Part shown: piece by piece, positions 848 to 54,450 of the stretch
How the letters are laid out: every line of letters begins with the position of its first letter
How positions within the stretch are numbered: the first letter of the stretch is position 1
Source of the DNA: Daphnia carinata
Lineage: Eukaryota
Reading direction: 5' to 3'
DNA length: 64,000 bases
NCBI RefSeq assembly: GCF_022539665.2
Contig: NC_081331.1
Location: 5,642,001 to 5,706,000 of the forward strand
Program-made: the position numbers and the translations under genes
Notes under the pieces: model-generated
Told to the model about the DNA's origin: nothing
Seen by the model: the letters and a program-made list of their open reading frames with translations, nothing else
Databases searched by the model: none

Positions 848-911
848 ATTAGCAGTAAAAGAGAAACAAGACCAACATTTTTAAATTTTTTTTTGGGTAA
901 AATGGATTGCC
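848..911 (-). mobile_element. Isolated right terminus of the GGCAATCC-TIR transposon family
   Basis: Ends ...GGGTAAAATGGATTGCC followed by AT (912-913); approximate reverse complement of 980-1045. No partner left end seen in the window. Confidence 0.7.
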
Positions 912-979
912 ATATACTCGAGCTATTGTTGCCTCTGCCGTCATTTTGTGCTGCCTAAGTTCATAAAATATCATTTTAT

Positions 980-1140
980 GGCAATCCGTTTTACCCAAAA
1001 TAAAAATAAAAAATATTGGCCTTTTGTTTCCTATTTACTGCTATCGCCATCTACCGGACATATTTCTAGTTAATTCTCTACGTACACTGACCGAAAACAA
1101 TTTTATGCCCGACTTTTCTCGGTCGGGGTTTTAAAAAAAT
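980..1140 (+). mobile_element. Left end of a GGCAATCC-TIR MITE, interrupted by the foldback element
   Basis: AT|GGCAATCCGTTTTACCC at 978-996; 990-1140 is an approximate reverse complement of ~6203-6337 and a direct copy of ~5902-6020. Confidence 0.7.
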
Positions 1141-1336
1141 GGCAATCCGTTTTACATTAAAAAAAAAGAAATGTCGGAAAAAAAAATCGCACTTTTTTCT
1201 TTTTTCCGACACGTAGCCATCTACCGCTGAGAATCGTTATTACTGGCGTAGGCAATTTCAGTCCATTGGATGCCATTCGCAGTTAGTTCAGTAGCGTGGA
1301 TGGAGAAAAACGCGTGGCTGGAGGAACAATTGAAAA

Positions 1337-2304
1337 ATGGATAAGATAATACAACAAAAGGATGGTAAGTATAAACATTATTATAGTGGTTTTCAATTAT
1401 TAATTATTGTTTATTAGATCAAATTATGAAGCTGCAGGCCCAATTATTGGAACAACACAAAATATTAGATACTGGTTGATCGGCCTATCTAGGAACAAAC
1501 ATTTTCCTTTTTCCCATTCAGGCTGTGAGACAAATTTGATTGTTTGTTATAACTACAACAACATTCCCTGCATAACGAAGGGAATGTTTACATTTTCTTT
1601 AGTGAACTTTTCCCTGAACTGTTGCCTGAAGTTAAAAATGTTTTGGAATATTTGGTTGGAGTTACGCTGATAATATTCAGTTGCAGTAATTGGATCTTGT
1701 CCTCTTTCTTGAGCAGCGTTTTGCCTTTTCAGCCATCGAAGAGGTGCTCAAAGATTATTAATTTTCTATCAATGACTGTCATTTGCCAAACATGTCTTCT
1801 TAAATAATTTGGTAATTGATTGATGGTTTCTAGATCATGAGTTTATTAAACAAAATATAATGGCCCCTAAAGATGTTTCATTTCGTTGGCATTGCAGCGA
1901 TGAACATCATACGTGGACTTTTTAGGTATGAAAGGAATTTTCTTGAAAATTTTTTGAATTTATGACAAAGCATTTCTCCTGCTTTTTGCCAACCATGTCT
2001 AATCTAAAAAAAAAATTTATCCAATAGGAAAGGATTTTCAGCATACTGGGAACACAACTATCAACAATGCAACATTCTAGGGGTGCTATTTTATCATTCA
2101 AGAGCCTTATACAATGATTTTCATCTGCAATTTGTATGGCCTTTCCCAAGCTTCTGCCAGAAGTTGAATCTATAAGGCATGTAAGTCACATGAGCAACAA
2201 TTGAAATGCTTAATGGTGTTGGTTTTCTTTTCTCAGCATAGGTTAATAGTAACATTGGATCTGAAAAGATTCTTGGTTGGGGCAAGACACTGAATAAATT
2301 GTAA
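1337..2304 (+). pseudogene. Decayed spliced gene in left arm of foldback copy 1 (internally deleted or replaced)
   Basis: ATG 1337 MDKIIQQKD|GTAAGT intron|DQIMKLQAQLLEQHKIL; resumes near 1858 and ends ...FPKLLPEVESIRH|intron|VNSNIGSEKILGWGKTLNKL*. Contains in-frame stops. Confidence 0.5.
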
Positions 2305-3054
2305 TGATTGAATGGATGACATGACATTTCTATACTTCATTCGGATTCCCGAGACGGTATTTTATATTTAAAAAATTGAAGTGCATATCTGGGCTCCCTT
2401 CCTTTCCGTAGCCCCGTTTCCCCTTGACTCGTAATAAGCCCGTAGGGGGTCATGCCCCTACTGTACGGTATATATAAAAACAACATATACCGAGGTTTGG
2501 AGGGCTCTGGCCGGAAAGGGGACGTGGGGGTCCGCTTAGTCCGATGATGTGTTCACGGAGGGCGACGTGGCTACCCACAAATCCGAACTAAAGGTTAATC
2601 GCTCCTGTAAAAATGTTCCAAATCTTCAGCTCTTCTTCCGGCTTCTCTTAGCCAATCACCGGGTAATCTCCCCGGTGGGTCAACAAGGCAGTGTCTCCCC
2701 CTGCCTGGGTTGACGGCAACTTTTGAAAGGGCTATTATGCCTTTTTAAAGTTGCAAAAATAATTGTAATGTGCAGAGAATTGTCAATAAAATTTTTTTTA
2801 TAAAATATTTTATCCAAAATTTGTTTCTTTCATTGTATGTTTTAGCCGTGTTCACACATTACATTTATCAACTTTTTTTTTTCTGCGCATTATTTGTTTT
2901 TGTCAACATTGATGGTAAGCATTGTTTCCATTGGTTTATCGTTTATCTGTAAGTATTCAATTATTATTTATTACACTCTTTGAATTTTTCCACTTAGATT
3001 CAAGGAACAACATGTAATATCTGGATATTTTTTAAAGTAATTTTGTACTTTGTT

Positions 3055-3127
3055 TTACCCGTATGGGAACCGATCCCCAGACATTCAGCGTGCAACGCCG
3101 ATGCTCTAACATTGAGCCACGAGATAT
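3055..3127 (-). pseudogene. tRNA-like unit 1 in foldback spacer (TGC at anticodon position)
   Basis: Minus strand GTG-GCTC-AATGTTA-GAGC-A-TCGGC-GTTGCAC-GCTGA-ATGTC-TGGGGATCGGTTCCCA: D arm and anticodon arm pair; T loop and acceptor stem are degenerate. Confidence 0.6.
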
Positions 3128-3222
3128 ATCTAAATATTTTATTATCGCATATTATATGTTATCGTCTAGGATGTTTATGCAGTCTTTCACAACTATATGT
3201 TTATCTTTCTATTTCTTTCATA

Positions 3223-3294
3223 AGGTTCATAGCTCTGTGGTAGAGCCTTCAGTTGCGATACCTGTTACCCTGGGATCAAACCTCAGTAGATGTG
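3223..3294 (+). pseudogene. tRNA-like unit 2 in foldback spacer (tRNA-Cys-like 5' half)
   Basis: CATAGCTCTGTGGTAGAGC...CTGGGATCAAAC; the copy-2 version reads TAGCTCTGTGGTAGAGCATTCAGCTGCA, close to the metazoan tRNA-Cys(GCA) 5' half. Anticodon stem is broken. Confidence 0.55.
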
Positions 3295-3410
3295 TAAAAA
3301 ATGAAGTACAATAAATGTAGAAGAGTATATTGCAGAATTGCATTTCCTTTTTATTCTAAGTGTAAATGCAAGTCCACAAGTAACTAGAAAAAAGCCAACT
3401 TGACATCATA

Positions 3411-3481
3411 TGATTCATGGCTCATTGGTAGAGCATCGGCGCGGTATGCCGAACATCCAGGGTTCGATCCCTGTATAATAA
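3411..3481 (+). pseudogene. tRNA-like unit 3 in foldback spacer with good Pol III A and B boxes
   Basis: TG-GCTC-ATTGGTA-GAGC-A-TCGGC-GCGGTAT-GCCGA-ACATC-CAGGG-TTCGAT-CCCTG: D, anticodon and T stems pair; A box TGGCTCATTGG, B box GGTTCGATCC; weak acceptor stem and no U33. Confidence 0.65.
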
Positions 3482-4135
3482 TAGAATACTAACATATAAA
3501 TGATAAACCAATGGAAACAATGCTTACCATCAAAGTTGACAAAAACAAATAATGCGAAGAAAAAAAAAAAGTTGATAAATGTAATGTGTGAACACGGCTA
3601 ACACATACAATGAAAGAAACAAATTTTGCAAAAAATATTTTATAAAAAAATTTTTATTGACAATTCTCTGCACATTACAATTATTTTTGCAACTTTAAAA
3701 AGGCATAATAGCCCTTTCAAAAGTTGCCGTCAACCCAGGCAGGGGGAGACACTGCCTTGTTGACCCACCGGGGAGATTACCCGGTGATTGGCTAAGAGAA
3801 GCCGGAAGAAAAGCTGAAGATTTGGAACATTTTTACAGGAGCGATTAACCTTTAGTTCGGATTTGTGGGTAGCCACGTCGCCCTCCGTGAACACATCATC
3901 GGACTAAGCGGACTTCCACGTCCCCTTTCCGGCCAGAGCCCTCCAAACCTCGGTATATGTTGTTTTTATATATACCGTACAGTAGGGGCATGACCCCCTA
4001 CGGGCTTATTATGAGTCAAGGGGAAACGGGGCTTCAGAAAAGAAGGGAGCCCAGATATGCACTTCAATTTTTTAAATATCAAATACCGTCTGGGGAATCC
4101 GAATTAAGTATAGAAATGTCATGTCATCCATCCAA

Positions 4136-5534
4136 TCAATACAATTTATTCAGTGTCTTGCCCCAACCAAGAATCTTTTCAGATCCAATGTTACTATTAA
4201 CCTATATTGAGAAAAGAAAAACAACACTGTTAAACATATCAATTGTTGATCATGTAACTTACATGACTCATAGATTCAACTTCTGGTGGAAGCTTGGGAA
4301 AGGACATACAAATTGCAGATTAACATCATTGTATAAGGTTCTTGAATGATAAACTAGCACCTGTAGAACGTTGCATTGTTGATAGTTGTGTTCCCAGTAC
4401 ATGAAAATCCTTGCCTATTGGATAAATTTTTTTTTGGTTGATTAGACCTGGTTGGCAAAAAGGAGGAGAAATTCTTCGTCATAAATTTAAAATTATTTGA
4501 AGAAAAATCCTTTCATACCTAAAGAGTCCATGTATGATGTTCATCTCTGCAATGGCAGCAAAATTAAAACATCTTTAAGGCCATTTAAGTACCCAATTTC
4601 CCCAACACTCTGAACATAAAGGACAAGTTGTTCTTTAGACAGAGAAGCAGAATTATTTGAGGCTTCTAGCTGTGACAGAACTATAAAGGATTGCTGTTGT
4701 ACTGGATTCATTAACACAAGATGGTACTTCTCATTAGGCAATTTGCATTACTCTATTAATTTACCTCACACCTTAACGGTAATGCACTCTCAGTGTTTTT
4801 TCATCTGTAGGCTCACTCTTCCATCCTGTAACACTTCCAGACTTGACTTGATCCCCCCGCTAAAATTCTGTGAATGCAAAATAATAGCATTAAAAATACT
4901 TTTTCGATAGACAAAGAACGGGGAAGTACCTAATCCATGTTTTAGGTTGAACTCATGCCATTTCTGTGTTTCCATACCACACCCATTTTCCGCCCAAATA
5001 CAGTACCACAATTCTTCAGTTCCTTCGCTGCATGGACTTATTACTAACAATTCTTTTAGTGCAGCACTAACAGAATTTAAATTTAACACACTGTCAGGTG
5101 GTGGACTGAATAACTAAACAATAAATAATTGTTTGTTAAAATTCTATACTTATTTGGAATTCTTATTTGGAAAGTTTAGGCACCTGACTGTGTTCACCTA
5201 ATGCCAACTCATCCTCACGTTCAGTTAGGGATGAGTTTTGAAAAACCTCCTTCACTGTTTGGAAACTGTTTTGTTCCAATTTCTTCTTTTCCCCTAGCTG
5301 AGCTTGTAGACTCAAAAATTTGAGCTACAAAACACGAATGAATAAAAGCAAATAAATAGAATCATTACGTATTAGGCCTACCATCCTTAGCTTCGTTGTT
5401 ATCTAATATTTTGTGTTGTTCCAATAACTGGGCCTGCAGCTTCATTATTTGATCTAATAAACAATAATTAATAATTGAAAACCAATATAATAATGTTTAT
5501 ACTTACCACTTTTTTGTTTTATTATCTTATCCAT
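4136..5534 (-). pseudogene. Decayed spliced gene in right arm of foldback copy 1
   Basis: Reverse-strand copy of the arm gene with ATG at 5534 and the same GT-AG intron positions; ORF-track fragments 4790-5089 and 4541-4741 are parts of it. Confidence 0.55.
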
Positions 5535-5901
5535 TTTTCAATTGCTCCTCCAGCCACGCAGTTTTCTCCAGCCACGCTGCTCAATTGAATGCTAATGGCA
5601 TACAATTAACTGAAATTGCATACATACTTGTAATAACGAAACCGACGGGTAGATGGCTACGGGTGGAAAAAAGAGAAAAAAGTGTGATTTTTTTTTTTTC
5701 CGCCATTTTTTTTTTTTTTCCATGTAAAACGGATTGCCATATCTATTGGTAAAGTACTCAGTTTTACTTCACTGAACGGCTCACGATGTTCAAGAAATTA
5801 GGGGCTTGAAAATAAGACCGACAAAATAAATAAGCCCGATTTTTCCCAAACAAAAGTTGGCGCGCCAGTACGGTACAGCGCGCTTGTAGAAAACAGCGTA
5901 T

Positions 5902-6490
5902 TGTATTCCGTTTTACCCCCCCCCCAAATATCGGCCTTTTTCTGTTCACTGCTATCACCATCTCCCGGTCAGATTTCTAGTTAATTCTTTATGTACAGTC
6001 AACCAAACAACCGAACAATTTTTCTGCTGCTTGGCGCTAGCTCTGTCGCGTACTGGTGCGCTAGATTGCCCCAAATATTTGGTGTATTTCAAAAACGATT
6101 AACTTTATGAAAAAATAGCAATTTTCCCCGAATCAGCATTCAGCTTTGCGTGTATCCTGTGATATTCAACCAATTCCTGTGAGTGGCAGTTTTTGCCGAA
6201 AAATTTTTTAAGCCCGACCGGGAAAAGTCGGGCTTAAAATTTTTTCGGTCAGTGAGTAGAAAATTGACTAGGAATGTGACCGGTAGATGGCAATAGCAGC
6301 CAAACAGAAAAAAAGGCCTTTTACTTTTATTTTGGGCATAGTCTTCTATAATAAACGGCCAGTAAGGAAAGTGGTGCTCGATTTGGGGTATTACGCCCTT
6401 CTGGCAATTTTAGTTTTAGGCGCAGGGGGTATTGCGCGCTTACTGGGCGTTTATTATAGTAGGCCATGATTTTGGGTTAAAAGGATTGCC
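5902..6490. mobile_element. MITE of the GGCAATCC-TIR family
   Basis: Degenerate left end AT|TGTATTCCGTTTTACCC; right end GGGTTAAAAGGATTGCC|AT (6491-6492); subterminal inverted segments ~5925-6020 and ~6240-6320. The right end could instead pair with the left end at 980. Confidence 0.6.
6340..6465. mobile_element. 126 bp mini-MITE nested in a MITE end
   Basis: AT|AGTCTTCTATAATAAACGGCCAGTAAG ... CTTACTGGGCGTTTATTATAGTAGGCC|AT: 27 bp imperfect TIRs with AT on both sides. Confidence 0.75.
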
Positions 6491-6526
6491 ATATTGCCAT
6501 ATGTACTCTTGTTTTTGGTTAACGAT

Positions 6527-48059: not shown

Positions 48060-48385
48060 AAATGGTCGAAAAAGTCGGGGTTATTTTGTCGGGCTTAATT
48101 TTGAGCATGGCGGAAATTCAGTCTTGTAATTTTGACATTAAATTTGGTTTAAATTAACCTAAAATAAAATGCTGATATCAGGAAAAATTTTTGCTTTCTC
48201 GTCCAACCAGATGTTTTTATAATAAATGGAATTAATGCGCTACTGGTGCGCCGGCATTTATGACCCGTTTCATCCGTTTATTTAAAAATTTATAAGCACT
48301 ACGTGAAAGCAAACTTCATTTCTGTGAATCTCGACGAATTCCAACAAATTTAAATTTTGGCCAAAATTGAAAAAGTGGGAAGGCT
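48060..48385. mobile_element. Right part of a MITE ending ...AAAAGTGGGAAGGCT
   Basis: Terminus at 48385 followed by AT; shares GTCGGG and TACTGGTGCGC motifs with 5760-6250. Left end not identified. Confidence 0.45.
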
Positions 48386-48387
48386 AT

Positions 48388-48925
48388 AGCCTTCCCACTT
48401 TTGTCAAAATCGGTCAAAAACGAAATCTCTTGGAATTCGACGAAACTCACACAGTATAATAAAACTGAACGCAGATTTCAATTCAGCTATTACTTTTTTC
48501 CCTAACCCAGCCGTTTTGAAAATAAAAGAAAACAAAGTGCTGTTAGCGACACTTTTTTTGCGCCGTAGCGTACTAGCGCGCTAACGTTATCAATTATTCG
48601 GTGTTTTTCAAAAACGATTGACTTAATGGAAAAAAGAACAAGTTTATCGAAATCAACATTCAATTTTAAGTATATCCTGTGATTTTCATCCAATTCCAAT
48701 AAGTGTCAATTTTTTTATGTATAAATTTTAAGCCCGACAAAATAAGCCCGACAAAATAAGCCCGACAAAATAAGCCCGACTTGTGTTTTTGACGTATAAT
48801 GTTAAAACTATAAGACCTATTGAAAAATAACCTTGATTTCCGTGGCAAGCATTCGATTCTGAAACGGAATCATGTACTTTTAATCAAATTTCAATTTTGG
48901 CCAAAAATGAAAAAATGAGAAGGCT
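48388..48925. mobile_element. 538 bp MITE with AGCCTT...AAGGCT termini
   Basis: AT|AGCCTTCCCACTTTTGTCAAAATCGGTCAAAA ... TTTTGGCCAAAAATGAAAAAATGAGAAGGCT|AT; internal 48560-48700 resembles 6036-6200. Confidence 0.7.
48729..48780 (+). repeat. 14 bp tandem repeat (TAAGCCCGACAAAA) x3.7
   Basis: Exact tandem copies; the core recurs singly at ~5832, ~6210 and ~48088 (reverse). Confidence 0.9.
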
Positions 48926-49155
48926 ATTATGGCAATCCGTTTTATATGGCAATTCGTTTTACACCAAAAAAAAAAAAAGTTCGCCAAAAAAAAAAAAAAA
49001 AATCACACTTTTTTCTTTTTTTTCCGACACGTAGCCATCTACCGCTCAGACTCGTTATTACTGGCGTAGGCAATTTCAGTCCATTGGATGCCATTCGCAG
49101 TTAGTTCAGTAGCGTGGATGGAGAATAACGCGTGGTTGGAGGAACAATTGAAAAA

Positions 49156-50552
49156 TTGATAAGATAATACAACAAAAGATGGTAAGTATAAACATTATTA
49201 TATTGGTTTTCAATAATTAGTTATTGTTTATTAGATCAAATTATGAAGCTGCAGGCCCAATTATTAGAACAACACAAAATATTAGAGAACAGCAAAGCTA
49301 AGGATGGTAAGGCCTAATACGTAATGATTCTATTTATTTGCTTTTATTCATTCGTGTTTTGTAGCTCAAATTTTGAGTCTACAAGCTCAGCTAGGGGAAA
49401 AAAACAAATTGGAACGGAACTGTTCCCAAAACAGTGAAGGAGGTTTTTCAAAACTCATCCCTAACTGAACATGAGGATGAATTGGCATTAGGCGAACACA
49501 GCCAGGTACCTAAACTTTTCAAATAAGAATTCAAAATAAGTATATAATTTTAACAAACAATTATTTATTGTTTAGTTATTCAGTCTACCACCTGACAGTG
49601 TGTTGAAGTTAAATTCTGTTAGTGCTGCACTAAAAGAATTGTTAGTAATAAGTTCATGCAGCGAAGGAAGTGAACAATTGTGGGACCGTATTTGGGCTGA
49701 AAATGGGTGTGGTAAGGAAATCCAGAAATAGCACGAGTTCAACATAAAACATGAATTAGGTACTTTTCGGTTTTTTGTCTATCAAAAAAGTATTTTTAAT
49801 GCTATTATTTTGCATTCACAGAATTTTAGTGGGGGATCAAGTCAAGTCTGGAAGTGTTACAGGATGGAAGAGTGAGCCTACAGTTGAAAAACACTGAAAG
49901 TGCATTACCATTAAGGTATGAGGTAAAGTAATAGAGTATGCAAATTGTCTAATGAGAAGTACCATCTTGTGTGAATGAATCCTGTGTAACAGCAATCCTT
50001 TATAGTTCTGTCACAGCTAGAAGCCTCAAATAATTCTGCTTCTCTTGCTAAAGAACAACTTGTCCTTTATGTTCACAGTGTTGGTGAAGCTGGGTACTTA
50101 AATGGCCCTAAAGATGTTTTAATGTTGCTGCTGTTGCAGAGATGAACATCATACATGGACTCTTTAGGTATGAAAAGAATTTTCTTCAAAATTTTTTGAA
50201 TTTATGATGACGAAGCTTTTCTCTTCCTTTTTGCCAACCAGGTGTAATCTACAAAAAAAAAAAAATTTTATCCAATAGGAAAGGAATTTCAGCATACTGG
50301 GAACACAACTATCAACAATGCAACATTCTAGGGGTGCTATTTTATCATTCAAGAGCCTTATACAATGATTTTCATCTGCAATTTGTATGGCCTTTCCCAA
50401 GCTTCTGCTAGAAGTTGAATCTATAAGTCATGTAAGTCACATGAGCAACAATTGAGATGCTTAATGGTGTTTTTCTTTTCTCATTGTAGGTTAATAGTAA
50501 CATTGGATCTGAAAAAATTCTTGGTTGGGGCATGACACTGAATAAATTGTAA
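49156..50552 (+). pseudogene. Decayed spliced gene in left arm of foldback copy 2 (most complete version)
   Basis: GT-AG introns at 49182-49234, 49307-49364, 49506-49575, 49760-49821, 50432-50489 (53-70 bp) separate coding-like segments; ATG mutated to TTG; several stops and frameshifts. Confidence 0.6.
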
Positions 50553-51224
50553 TGATTGAATGGATGACATGACATTTCTATACTTCATTCGGATTCCCGA
50601 GACGGTATTTTATATTTAAAAAATTGAAGTGCATATCTGGGCTCCCTTCCTTTCCGTAGCCCCGTTTCCCCTTGACTCGTAATAAGCCCGTAGGGGGTCA
50701 TGCCCCTACTGTACGGTATATATAAAAACAACATATACCGAGGTTTGGAGGGCTCTGGCCGGAAAGGGGACGTGGATGTCCGCTTAGTCCGATGATGTGT
50801 TCACGGAGGGCTCTGTGGCTACCCACAAATCCGAACTAAAGGTTAATCGCTCCTGTAAAAATGTTCCAAATCTTCAGCTCTTCTTCCGGCTTCTCTTAGC
50901 CAATCACCGGGTAATCTCCCCGGTGGGTCAACAAGGCAGTGTCTCCCCCTGCCTGGGTTGACGGCAACTTTTGAAAGGGCTATTGTGCCTTTTTAAAGTT
51001 GCAAAAATAATTGTAATATGCAGAGAATTGTCAATAAATTTTTTTTTTTTAAAATATTTTTTGCAAAATTTGTCTCTTTCATTGTCTGTGTTCGCTGTGT
51101 TCACACATTACATATATCGCCTTTTTTTTTAATTAGCTTGCTCAATTCACCTATATTGTTTTATGCCAGCTTTGTTGGTAACCATTGTTTCCATTAGTTT
51201 ATCGTTTATCTGTAGGCATTCAAT

Positions 51225-51647
51225 TATTATCCAGGGATCGAACGCTGGATGTTCGGCATACCGCGCCGATGCTCTACCAATGAGCCATGAATCATATGAT
51301 GTGAAGTTGGCTTTTTTCTAGTCACTTGCGGACTTGCATTTACACTTTGAATAAAACTGAAATGCATTACTGCAATATTCTTTTCTCCATTTAGATATAG
51401 ATCTTTATACATCTAGTAAGTTTTGAACCCAGGGTAACAGTTATTGCAGCTGAATGCTCTACCACAGAGCTATGGACCTTACGAAAGCAATAGAAAGATA
51501 AACATATAGTTGTGAAAGACTGCAGAAACATCCTAGACGATAACATATGATATGCGCTAATAAAAATTTTAAATATATCTCGTGGCTCAATGTTAGAGCA
51601 TCGGCGTTGCACGCTGAATGTCTAGGGATCGATTCCCATGCCAGTAA
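51225..51647. pseudogene. Three tRNA-like units in the copy-2 spacer
   Basis: Unit 3 at ~51225-51294 (-), unit 2 at ~51409-51479 (-), unit 1 at ~51576-51647 (+); homologous to 3411-3481, 3223-3294 and 3055-3127. Confidence 0.6.
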
Positions 51648-52387
51648 AACAACATATAAATACAAAATAACTTCAGAAAATATCCAGGTATTACACGTTG
51701 TTCCTTGTCTAAGTTCAAGAATTCAAAAAGTGTAATAATAATAATTGAATACTTACAGATAAACGATACAACGGTGGCAAAAACAATAAAGATGAATTGA
51801 GCAAGCTAAATAAAAAAAAATTGGTAATTGTAATGTGTGAACAAAGCGAACACAGACAATGAAAGAGACAAATTTTGCAAAAAATATTTTATAAAAAAAA
51901 ATTTATTGACAATTCTCTGCATATTACAATTATTTTTGCAACTTTAAAAAGGCACAATAGCCCTTTCAAAAGTTGCCGTCAACCCAGGCAGGGGGAGACA
52001 CTGCCTTGTTGACCCACCGGGGAGATTACCCGGTGATTGGCTAAGAGAAGCCGGAAGAAGAGCTGAAGATTTGGAACATTTTTACAGGAGCGATTAACCT
52101 TTAGTTCGGATTTGTGGGTAGCCACAGAGCCCTCCGTGAACACATCATCGGACTAAGCGGACATCCACGTCCCCTTTCCGGCCAGAGCCCTCCAAACCTC
52201 GGTATATGTTGTTTTTATATATACCGTACAGTAGGGGCATGACCCCCTACGGGCTTATTACGAGTCAAGGGGAAACGGGGCTACGGAAAGGAAGGGAGCC
52301 CAGATATGCACTTCAATTTTTTTAATATAAAATACCGTCTCGGGAATCCGAATGAAGTATAGAAATGTCATGTCATCCATTCAATCA

Positions 52388-53571
52388 TTACAATTTATTC
52401 AGTGTCATGCCCCAACCAAGAATTTTTTCAGATCCAATGTTACTATTAACCTACAATGAGAAAAGAAAAACACCATTAAGCATCTCAATTGTTGCTCATG
52501 TGACTTACATGACTTATAGATTCAACTTCTAGCAGAAGCTTGGGAAAGGCCATACAAATTGCAGATGAAAATCATTGTATAAGGCTCTTGAATGATAAAA
52601 TAGCACCCCTAGAATGTTGCATTGTTGATAGTTGTGTTCCCAGTATGCTGAAATTCCTTTCCTATTGGATAAAATTTTTTTTTTGTAGATTACACCTGGT
52701 TGGCAAAAAGGAGGAGAAAAGCTTCATCATAAATTCAAAAAATTTTCAAGAAAATTCCTTTCATACCTAAAGAGTCCATGTATGATGTTCATCTCTGCAA
52801 CAGCAGCAACATTAAAACATCTTTAGGGCCATTTAAGTACCCAGCTTCACCAACACTCTGAACGTAAAGGACAAGTTGTTCTTTAGCAAGAGAAGCAGAA
52901 TTATTTGAGGCTTCTAGCTGTGACAGAACTATAAAGGATTGCTGTTACACAGTATTCATTCACACAAGATGGTACTTCTCATTAGACAATTTGCATACTC
53001 TATTACTTTACCTCATACCTTAATGGTAATGCACTTTCAGTGTTTTTCAACTGTAGGCTCACTCTTCCATCCTGTAACACTTCCAGACTTGACTTGATCC
53101 CCCACTAAAATTCTGTGAATGCAAAATAATAGCATTAAAAATACTTTTTCGATAGACAAAAAACCGAAAAGTACCTAATTCATGTTTTATGTTGAACTCG
53201 TGCTATTTCTGGGTTTCCGTACCACACCCATTTTCAGCCCAAATACGGTCCCACAGTTGTTCACTTCCTTCGCCGCATGGACTTATTACTAACAATTCTT
53301 TTAGTGCAGCACTAACAGAATTTAACTTCAACACACTGTCAGGTGGTAGACTGAATAACTAAACAATAAATAATTGTTTGTTAAAATTCTATACTTATTT
53401 TGAATTCTTATTTGAAAAGTGTAGGTACCTGACTGTGTTCACCTAATGCCAATTCATCCTCATGTTCAGTTAGGGATGAGTTTGGAAAAACCTCCTTCAC
53501 TGTTTGGAAAGTGCCCTGTTCTAATTTGTTTTTTTCCCAGTAACTACTTAATTGTAGACTCAAAATTTGAG
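52388..53571 (-). pseudogene. Decayed arm gene in right arm of copy 2, first two exons deleted
   Basis: Near-exact reverse complement of 49365-50552. Confidence 0.55.
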
Positions 53572-54039
53572 CTAAAAAACACAAATGAGAAAAAAAAGAA
53601 AAAATTGTGATTTTTTTTTTTTGGGGGGGGGGGTAAAACGGATTGCCATAGTATTTAACAGTATTAAGCGTCGAATAAAAAATCAGTACCAACTTTCTAT
53701 CAAGAATTTTTACTGCAGACGATCCCCCAAACACTATAGCCACCTATTGGTACGATATTCAGTTTTCTGCATTGGGTTTCAGCGATCGTCCGGGGCAAGA
53801 CTAAGGGCTGTAGCAACTTTCACTTCTAATAATTCAAATGCCATAAGGTTCACGTGTAAAAGATATCAATTTTCGTAATCCTTGCTTAATTTAGCTTAAA
53901 ATACATTATTCCGATTTGAAATTGAACGCTGATCACGAATATCGGCTTTGTTTTGACATTGGGCATAACAAAACGGAGAAAAACGAAGAAAATGACCGTG
54001 GAAAAATTGCCTCAAAAACCGTCAAAAATTGACCATCGT

Positions 54040-54450
54040 TGGAATTGCTTGAAAATGCCAGAATATACTCAAAATCGAATACTGATTTCGAGAAAATTGC
54101 TATTTTTTTTCATAACATCAACAGTTTTGGAAAAACACCGAATTAAAATACGACTGGCGCGCCAGTACGCTACAGCGCTAGCATGACACATCAAAGTTAT
54201 TCAATTCGATATATTTCCAAAACGATGATCTAATAAGCAATAATAAATAATTTAAAACCAATATAATAATCTTTATACTTACATCCTTATCTTTTATTAT
54301 CTTATCCATTTTTAAATATTTTTCTCCAGCCACGCGTTTTTCTCCAGCCACGCTACTCAACTCACTGCCATTGGGATCCAATGGACTCAAATTGCCTACA
54401 TGCCTGTAATAACGAGTCTGACCGGTAGATGGCTACGGTCGAAAAAAAAA
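54040..54450 (-). mobile_element. Diverged fragments of the same transposon families
   Basis: 54050-54182 resembles the reverse complement of 6036-6190; 54225-54450 is a diverged reverse copy of the foldback subterminal region including the MDKIIKDKD exon. Confidence 0.65.

Follow-up and report, generated by a model that had tools for sequence, protein, structure and literature searches.

A palindromic element of Daphnia carinata with outward-facing tRNA-like units in its loop

Three tRNA-like units were found in the loop of a palindromic element that occurs twice in the window (the whole stretch of Daphnia carinata DNA analysed here, 64 kb in length). We see about an even chance that these units are decayed tRNA-derived repeat heads, similar to the heads of SINEs, which were caught in the loop as passengers before the element was copied. 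The element itself is likely an ISL2EU-like non-autonomous foldback transposon, judging from its ends and its arms.

The tRNA-like units and their divergence

All three units face outward, unit 1 (u1) into the left arm and units 2 and 3 (u2 and u3) into the right arm. Their orientation agrees with a preliminary description of this DNA. As that description held, u1 is related to u3 (77% over 57 nt, E 1.5e-5) and all of the units persist in the second copy of the element (Table 1). The six units, three per copy, were aligned without a gap over 73 columns, which is the length of a tRNA. u1 and u3 have 39–42 of 55 core columns in common, and u2 has 25–32 of 55 in common with either of them. The likeness of u1 and u3 lies in the head and the anticodon stem and does not extend to the loop, the T arm or the flanks.

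An A-box plus B-box pattern, built from a consensus, was employed to search the window. It matched five of the six units, each with one mismatch in the A box, and nothing else in the 64 kb. The chance rate of the pattern was 0.42 per shuffled window and 0.003 per 510 bp. The two boxes stand at tRNA spacing, which is the layout of a type 2 Pol III promoter, and the full B-box core was retained in five of the six units. This unit-sized arrangement occurs three times within 430 bp and not in the other 63 kb of the window. A covariance model of the six units detected no other unit-like head elsewhere in the window.

The stems have been kept to different degrees. All 24 D-stem cells of the six units are paired, compared with 73% in the anticodon stem, 70% in the T stem and 61.9% in the acceptor stem, where one column is never paired. 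ARAGORN called no tRNA gene in the window. The Rfam scores (Table 1), the above-chance A/B pattern and the paired D stem support the earlier view that the units are tRNA-derived and SINE-head-like, and the ARAGORN result and the acceptor stems support its judgement that they are not functional tRNAs. The anticodon position of u2 reads GCA in copy 2 and GCG in copy 1, so the earlier label of a Cys-like unit fits copy 2 but not copy 1. u3 has a purine at position 32 and no U33, and neither u2 nor u3 has a stable canonical anticodon loop. The head of u1 and u3 presumably resembles tRNA-Asn or tRNA-Lys as much as the isotype its loop spells. Isotype labels drawn from these sequences are weak.

The divergence between the two copies was also quantified. 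Over all three units, 17 of 209 sites differ, versus 36 of 293 in the spacers (8% vs 12%, p=0.14); the sequences give no clear sign of selection on the three units together, the difference being not significant. With u1 and u3 taken together, a grouping chosen post hoc, 7 of 136 sites (5%) differ versus the same spacers (p=0.024), and this level is no better than that of the broken gene in the arms (7%). The A box, D arm and anticodon arm of u1 and u3 are identical between copies. u1 has two core changes, one of which abolishes the invariant A of the B box. u2 is 13.7% diverged, which is comparable to the spacers, and its pattern leans toward neutral change. The AT-rich inner arms are 16% diverged.

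Table 1. Positions of the element, its loop units and its arm features in the window
Feature	Position	Strand	Remarks
Palindromic non-autonomous element, copy 1	1141..5738	.	inverted termini GGCAATCCG; AT outside both ends; pairing arms
Unrelated segment in place of left-arm middle	1472..1858	.	387 nt; no other match in window; right arm has 4586-5399 there
Conserved GC-rich hairpin block, left arm	2381..2750	+	fold z -4.2; 1.5-2.6% diverged; motif at 23 loci; covarying hairpin
Predicted poly(A) signal, left-arm transcript	2785..2790	+	sole AATAAA of inner arm; putative function
Palindrome loop	2968..3474	.	507 bp; arms stop at 2967 and 3475
u1, copy 1	3054-3126	-	A box 3119-3109, B box 3076-3066; B-box A lost in copy 1; Rfam tRNA model 22.6 bits, E 0.31; alignment
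u2, copy 1	3223-3295	+	A box from 3230; A/B pattern match; alignment; no match to Rfam tRNA model
u3, copy 1	3411-3483	+	A box from 3418, B box intact; Rfam tRNA model 37.1 bits, above gathering score 29
A-rich tract without TTTT	3475..3623	+	then T4 3624-3627 and T5 3651-3655, predicted Pol III stops
Predicted poly(A) signal, right-arm transcript	3653..3658	-	sole AATAAA of inner arm; putative function
Conserved hairpin block, right arm (mirror)	3700..4062	-	same block
Inward spliced gene, right arm	4063..5533	-	exon 3 frameshifted vs D. carinata model; tblastn of P0002
Element copy 2, inverted, with all three units	48931..53647	.	90.7% over 3924 nt; same termini and AT
Block copies in copy 2	50629-51000, 51945-52311		mirrors of 2381-2750
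u3, copy 2	51222-51294	-	54/55 core columns equal to copy 1
u2, copy 2	51407-51479	-	48/55 core columns equal to copy 1
u1, copy 2	51576-51648	+	53/55 core columns equal to copy 1

The element, its cargo and its hairpin block

Comparison of the window with itself showed that copy 1 is a palindrome of 4.6 kb. Its arms pair at 87% between 1139-1471 and 5400-5740, and its inner arms pair at 94% between 1859-2967 and 3475-4585. Copy 2 is the reverse match to 1859-5742, and its arms are complementary at 96.8%. Both copies terminate in GGCAATCC repeats, and the terminal inverted repeats of copy 1 start with GG, giving GG…CC ends. AT was found outside all seven GGCAATCC-type ends in the window, four of which come from the two copies and three from neighbouring small elements. 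At six of the seven, the base outside AT is T (T/AT/A), which equally fits a TA duplication with TGG termini. No DDE/THAP transposase and no YqaJ ORF was found within the element, yet its termini are shared and its two copies lie in unrelated flanks, and we infer from this that it was mobilised in trans.

Several further observations were made around the two copies. The swapped 387-nt segment in the left arm of copy 1 may reflect an exchange of cargo. Older small elements, which have either GGCAATCC-type ends or related inverted arms (71-81% identity), surround the two copies (850-1140, 5739-6490, 48070-48930 and 53650-54450) and may mark an insertion hot spot; a tandem 14-mer lies at 48730-48780 within the nest beside copy 2. 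A CTCF-like motif, scored against a consensus, was found about 75 nt inside the termini of the element and its neighbours (1057, 1227, 5646, 6280, 47834, 49045, 53750 and 54422). The pattern has 15 matches in the window, with these 8 near termini and 4 more in the hairpin block. Judged by eye, the 3' end of a cathepsin-B-like gene lies at 240-410, just left of the element nest. The window also carries intron-split clathrin and porin genes.

The arms carry a spliced gene that reads inward, with introns in the right arm at 5454-5506, 5325-5381, 4868-4929, 4694/4702-4764 and 4415-4518. These five introns, predicted as GT-AG, are spanned with single-base precision by contigs from run X1 (at least 15 joints), which shows that there is a spliced inward form, either in RNA or in processed copies. 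The closest protein is an uncharacterised D. carinata protein of 143 aa (P0002, about 85% identity over four right-arm exons), which is present at several loci (three cluster members, five accessions). Compared with the D. carinata model, the cargo is broken in all four arms: exon 3 in the right arm of copy 1 has 139 nt with one extra base, the left arm of copy 1 is truncated after exon 2, and the arms of copy 2 have a frameshift or a stop. The cargo protein has no Pfam family. A search of 1.84 billion representatives gave two matches, and no longer relative was found. One of the two, the lysozyme repeat protein P0003 (matched at 29% over 45 aa), was rejected as spurious, and an atlas match of 0.76 was below noise.

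Each arm also contains a conserved hairpin block, in which the copies differ at 16 of 777 sites, compared with 144 of 1962 in the part that holds the gene (p=1e-8). The block motif was detected at 23 metagenome loci (L001-L023), with a core that is 70-98% alike, a sharp 5' edge and unrelated flanks, and it had no match in viral contigs and none in prokaryote contigs. No protein link was found between the cargo and the gene side of these loci. In a 23-pair model of 14 sequences, 91.6% of the pairs were formed and six pairs were altered on both sides, with many G-U on the inward strand. This covariation supports but does not prove one block hairpin, the structure being derived from the same, related sequences. 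The whole-core fold z of the block relatives spreads from -2.0 to +1.5, so only one hairpin is supported; the distal hairpins vary among loci. A donor-like GT lies 18-27 nt upstream of the block at 15 of 21 loci versus 3.1 in shuffles, a pattern chosen post hoc.

The block had no relevant Rfam match at E up to 10 (window 900-6500 and seven loci) or at E up to 1 (20 loci). It was therefore rejected as RNase P or MRP, including the intron-embedded RNase P RNAs of Daphnia, which, according to passages of PMC4287351, were located with Infernal. HDV-like ribozyme, hammerhead, LTR, MITE and telomerase RNA also gave no Rfam match, and motifs compared by eye did not fit. The block may be a new structured RNA, or a cis element, carried by Daphnia repeats. 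As a multi-copy, apparently covarying non-coding element without an Rfam match, it is a separate lead.

Some of the block loci have features of their own. L009 contains a second palindrome (2200-3044 and 3424-4249), whose inward arms end in the distal part of a variant block, and a further inverted pair at about 535-845 and 1175-1480. The distal block end of L011 has a G/C hairpin and, 9 nt beyond it, CTAG and then T, which we take to resemble a Helitron 3' end; L009 and L020 fit less, and the window copies do not. In L007, bacterial purH and tRNA-Pro (73-1224) are joined to the block, probably in a chimeric contig. Judged by eye, pieces of a hAT-like transposase with a BED finger lie near the block in L002 (1-820) and an RNase H-like piece lies in L022 (765-1037).

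Origin and possible roles of the units

Sequences resembling the units were found outside the window. In run X3 (organism B), u3 is matched through the anticodon stem (to 3453) by 37 contigs, whose B-box arm and tail beyond that point are different; eight more contigs diverge at the anticodon loop, and eight have other upstream sequence. This head evidence consists of loose ends of 30 letters, with at least six loose ends among those listed. By these matches, the u3 head is probably one of a family with members in other settings. The preliminary description had named, as grounds for giving up a role for the units, that they were dispersed SINE fragments absent from most element copies; the heads with other continuations in organism B bear this out in part. 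Joints in X3 between two heads or between head and block have sides of 20-32 nt at 80% likeness and were set aside. The exact pattern of the u1/u3 head gave no match in the metagenome contigs. Contigs 1 and 2 of run X1 carry the loop centre with the flanks of u2 and u3 at 92-94% identity.

The covariance model of the six units detected none in the 23 hairpin-block loci (57,924 bases). Seven of these loci (six independent) extend at least 940 nt on the loop side, and the units of the window lie at 570-730 nt. The AT-rich palindrome loop of L009 (378 nt) also had no unit by the six-unit profile. These comparisons of sequence showed that the units are not general to this architecture. The 23 loci have the block but not the cargo in common; they therefore do not represent this element, and the lack of units in them cannot tell whether its own family lacks them.

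Contig depth was recorded over the loop. In X1, the summed depth drops from 477 (3076-3113) to 7.5 (3114-3151) at the A box of u1 and climbs through 8, 75 and 292 across u3. In X3, the unit cores are covered and the inter-unit spacers are without cover. Run X4 has almost nothing of this stretch and bears on none of these points. The X1 and X3 patterns come from contigs of one study each, in which depth cannot rank parts, and are a lead only. The X1 depth steps at u1 and u3 would fit short Pol III RNAs or a barrier alike.

Pol III terminates at runs of four or five T, and cleavage is expected 10-30 nt past AATAAA. u3 is followed by an A-rich tract of 149 nt without TTTT, as described earlier, and the first T4 on the outward strand lies 150 nt past the unit; after u1 the first outward T4 is at 2819. 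The tracts are unremarkable, with TTTT lacking in 86% (u3) and 56% (u1) of composition-kept shuffles, and 9-24% of window positions have a T4-free run as long as that of u3. A T5 lies 62 nt past the B box of u2, before u3. Each arm has one inner AATAAA (2785, 3658, 51033 and 51907), and a T4 sits 31-32 nt past its start in all four arms. With outward stops so near AATAAA, outward RNAs would share no more than a few dozen bases with the mRNA, and with the T4 and T5 after u3 they would end before the hairpin block and the coding exons.

These stops count against the earlier proposal that the units are Pol III promoters giving RNA antisense to the cargo gene and silencing it, which we consider very unlikely. 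All units do point against the arm transcripts, with 149-244 nt free of TTTT after u3 and u1, but the outward T4/T5 stops stand about 30 nt from AATAAA in all four arms, about 400 nt short of the nearest upstream exon border and 1.3 kb short of the coding exons. Moreover, the T-free tract is expected from composition, and the product of u2 would end before u3. It is extremely improbable that the units are working tRNA genes: u3 exceeds the Rfam gathering score, but ARAGORN called none, the acceptor stem is 62% paired with one column never paired, and the anticodon features of u3 and u2 are not those of such genes. If the units were instead heads of true SINEs, inserted independently in the loop or carried as a SINE master by the element, with Pol III transcripts still able to retropose, the 37 contigs of organism B with their common continuation, the A-rich sequence after u1 and u3, and the tRNA-type and unclassified SINEs listed for Daphnia in passages of PMC8594854 would fit. 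However, the surroundings of the units yielded neither a SINE body nor a tail or target duplication, the flanks of u1 and u3 are unrelated both upstream and directly downstream (scores as high were reached in 499 and 421 of 500 shuffles), and the continuation in organism B is unlike that in the window, so we hold true SINEs to be improbable.

A TFIIIC-bound boundary had also been suggested and is possible; the geometry of the units fits it. In its stronger form, the units would be a selected two-way roadblock, at which TFIIIC/TFIIIB would halt Pol II overrunning either poly(A) site and prevent an RNAi-triggering hairpin RNA. The arms are 94-97% complementary and spliced inward, so read-through would yield kilobases of hairpin. 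Pol II from either side would meet at least one unit from behind and one head-on, five of the six B-box cores are intact, u1 and u3 are less diverged than the spacers, and in yeast TFIIIB/TFIIIC stop Pol II at nearly half of the tRNA genes (PMC5052057, in the passages on roadblocks). Against this, selection over all three units is not significant, the L009 palindrome loop is plain and AT-rich, each arm has its own AATAAA, and the yeast precedent concerns intact tRNA genes. We regard such a roadblock as possible but rather doubtful. The broader proposal, that a foldback transposon recruited three outward tRNA-derived TFIIIC sites as a two-way barrier, with convergent spliced arms expressed without a joint hairpin RNA to dodge RNAi and ending in an undescribed Daphnia-wide structured RNA block, is unlikely in our analysis.

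The passenger reading is favoured by signs of decay from a tRNA (an intact D stem beside broken acceptor and T stems, and no gene called by ARAGORN), the u3-like heads in other contexts in organism B, the lack of clear selection with one A-box mismatch per unit, the unit-free architecture of the block loci and L009, the element type with GG termini and AT flanks at seven of seven ends, and the cargo broken in all four arms. Against it stand the lower divergence of u1 and u3 than of the spacers (p=0.024, post hoc grouping), the identity of their A box, D arm and anticodon arm between copies, the five full B-box cores, the loop found at 92-94% in X1, and the failure to find a SINE body, tail or target duplication beside the units. 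Three outward units in 430 bp also look ordered, though 1 in 4 random orientations would. If the units are passengers, dispersed tRNA-derived repeat remnants were likely caught in the loop ahead of element copying, and a DDE transposase supplied in trans would have acted on the GG…CC ends of the element and mobilised it. Pol II would read the arms inward and end at the AATAAA beside the loop. Should Pol III fire from the units, its products would be short, A-rich RNAs of about 215-245 nt (u3), 310-370 nt (u1) and 125 nt (u2), which would stop at T-runs beside the poly(A) site, with no silencing of the cargo and no selection.

Comparison with known systems

The element has several features in common with foldback and Pack-type elements, namely long arms that are homogenised inside each copy, internal segments that have been exchanged, and broken spliced cargo read inward. 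To our knowledge, neither tRNA-like units in the loop nor a hairpin block in the arms is a feature of such elements, and we know of no transposon that has a TFIIIB/TFIIIC roadblock as its own device. With tRNA-derived SINE heads the units share A and B boxes at tRNA spacing, a broken acceptor stem and related heads in many contexts in organism B. They differ from these in having no common body, tail or target-site duplication, and in that three different heads are clustered in one transposon loop.

The passages on Helenus non-autonomous LTR retrotransposons (Kojima 2024, PMC10886601) describe a non-autonomous mobile element with a tRNA-derived sequence that is non-functional but has kept boxes A and B, as seen here, and make no mention of Daphnia or crustaceans. 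The present element differs from Helenus as described there, with repeats that are inverted rather than direct, no PBS/PPT or 5-bp duplication, and units that occur once, in the loop and outside the repeats. The arrangement of Helenus/Cassandra-type TRIMs, with a small-RNA-derived sequence in direct LTRs together with PBS and PPT, is therefore not that of the element. KolobokP, as described in parts of PMC9587614, does not apply to it. In the literature covered on ISL2EU, tRNA-like units, SINEs, ribozymes or tRNA genes in Daphnia, with most subscription papers and Repbase outside its scope, the element was not described; repeat libraries in supplements or in Repbase may already include this family.

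The ISL2EU group of PHIS DNA transposons is the closest in its ends. According to passages of Han et al. 2015 (PMC4482050), ISL2EU has GG termini and an AT duplication with the target A/AT/T, and parts of PMC8594854 report it as active in D. magna. GG-starting termini, AT on both sides, an animal host and a length of about 4.6 kb are in common (PMC4482050). The present element differs in having no DDE/THAP or YqaJ gene, in its arms of 1.5-2 kb compared with ISL2EU TIRs of 6-259 bp, and in its T/AT/A at six of seven ends rather than A/AT/T (both as given in PMC4482050).

For the yeast tRNA-gene roadblocks, passages of Roy et al. 2016 (PMC5052057) report that TFIIIB and TFIIIC stop Pol II at 132 of 272 tRNA genes. 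Pol II units run into A/B-box elements in yeast and would do so here, but the yeast elements are intact tRNA genes (PMC5052057). If the units are passengers, they are another case of tRNA-derived debris in a non-autonomous transposon and matter for Daphnia repeat annotation only. If they act as a barrier, they would give a palindromic element a new means of not producing double-stranded RNA from itself, and would offer a compact and testable animal example in which tRNA-like boxes terminate Pol II.
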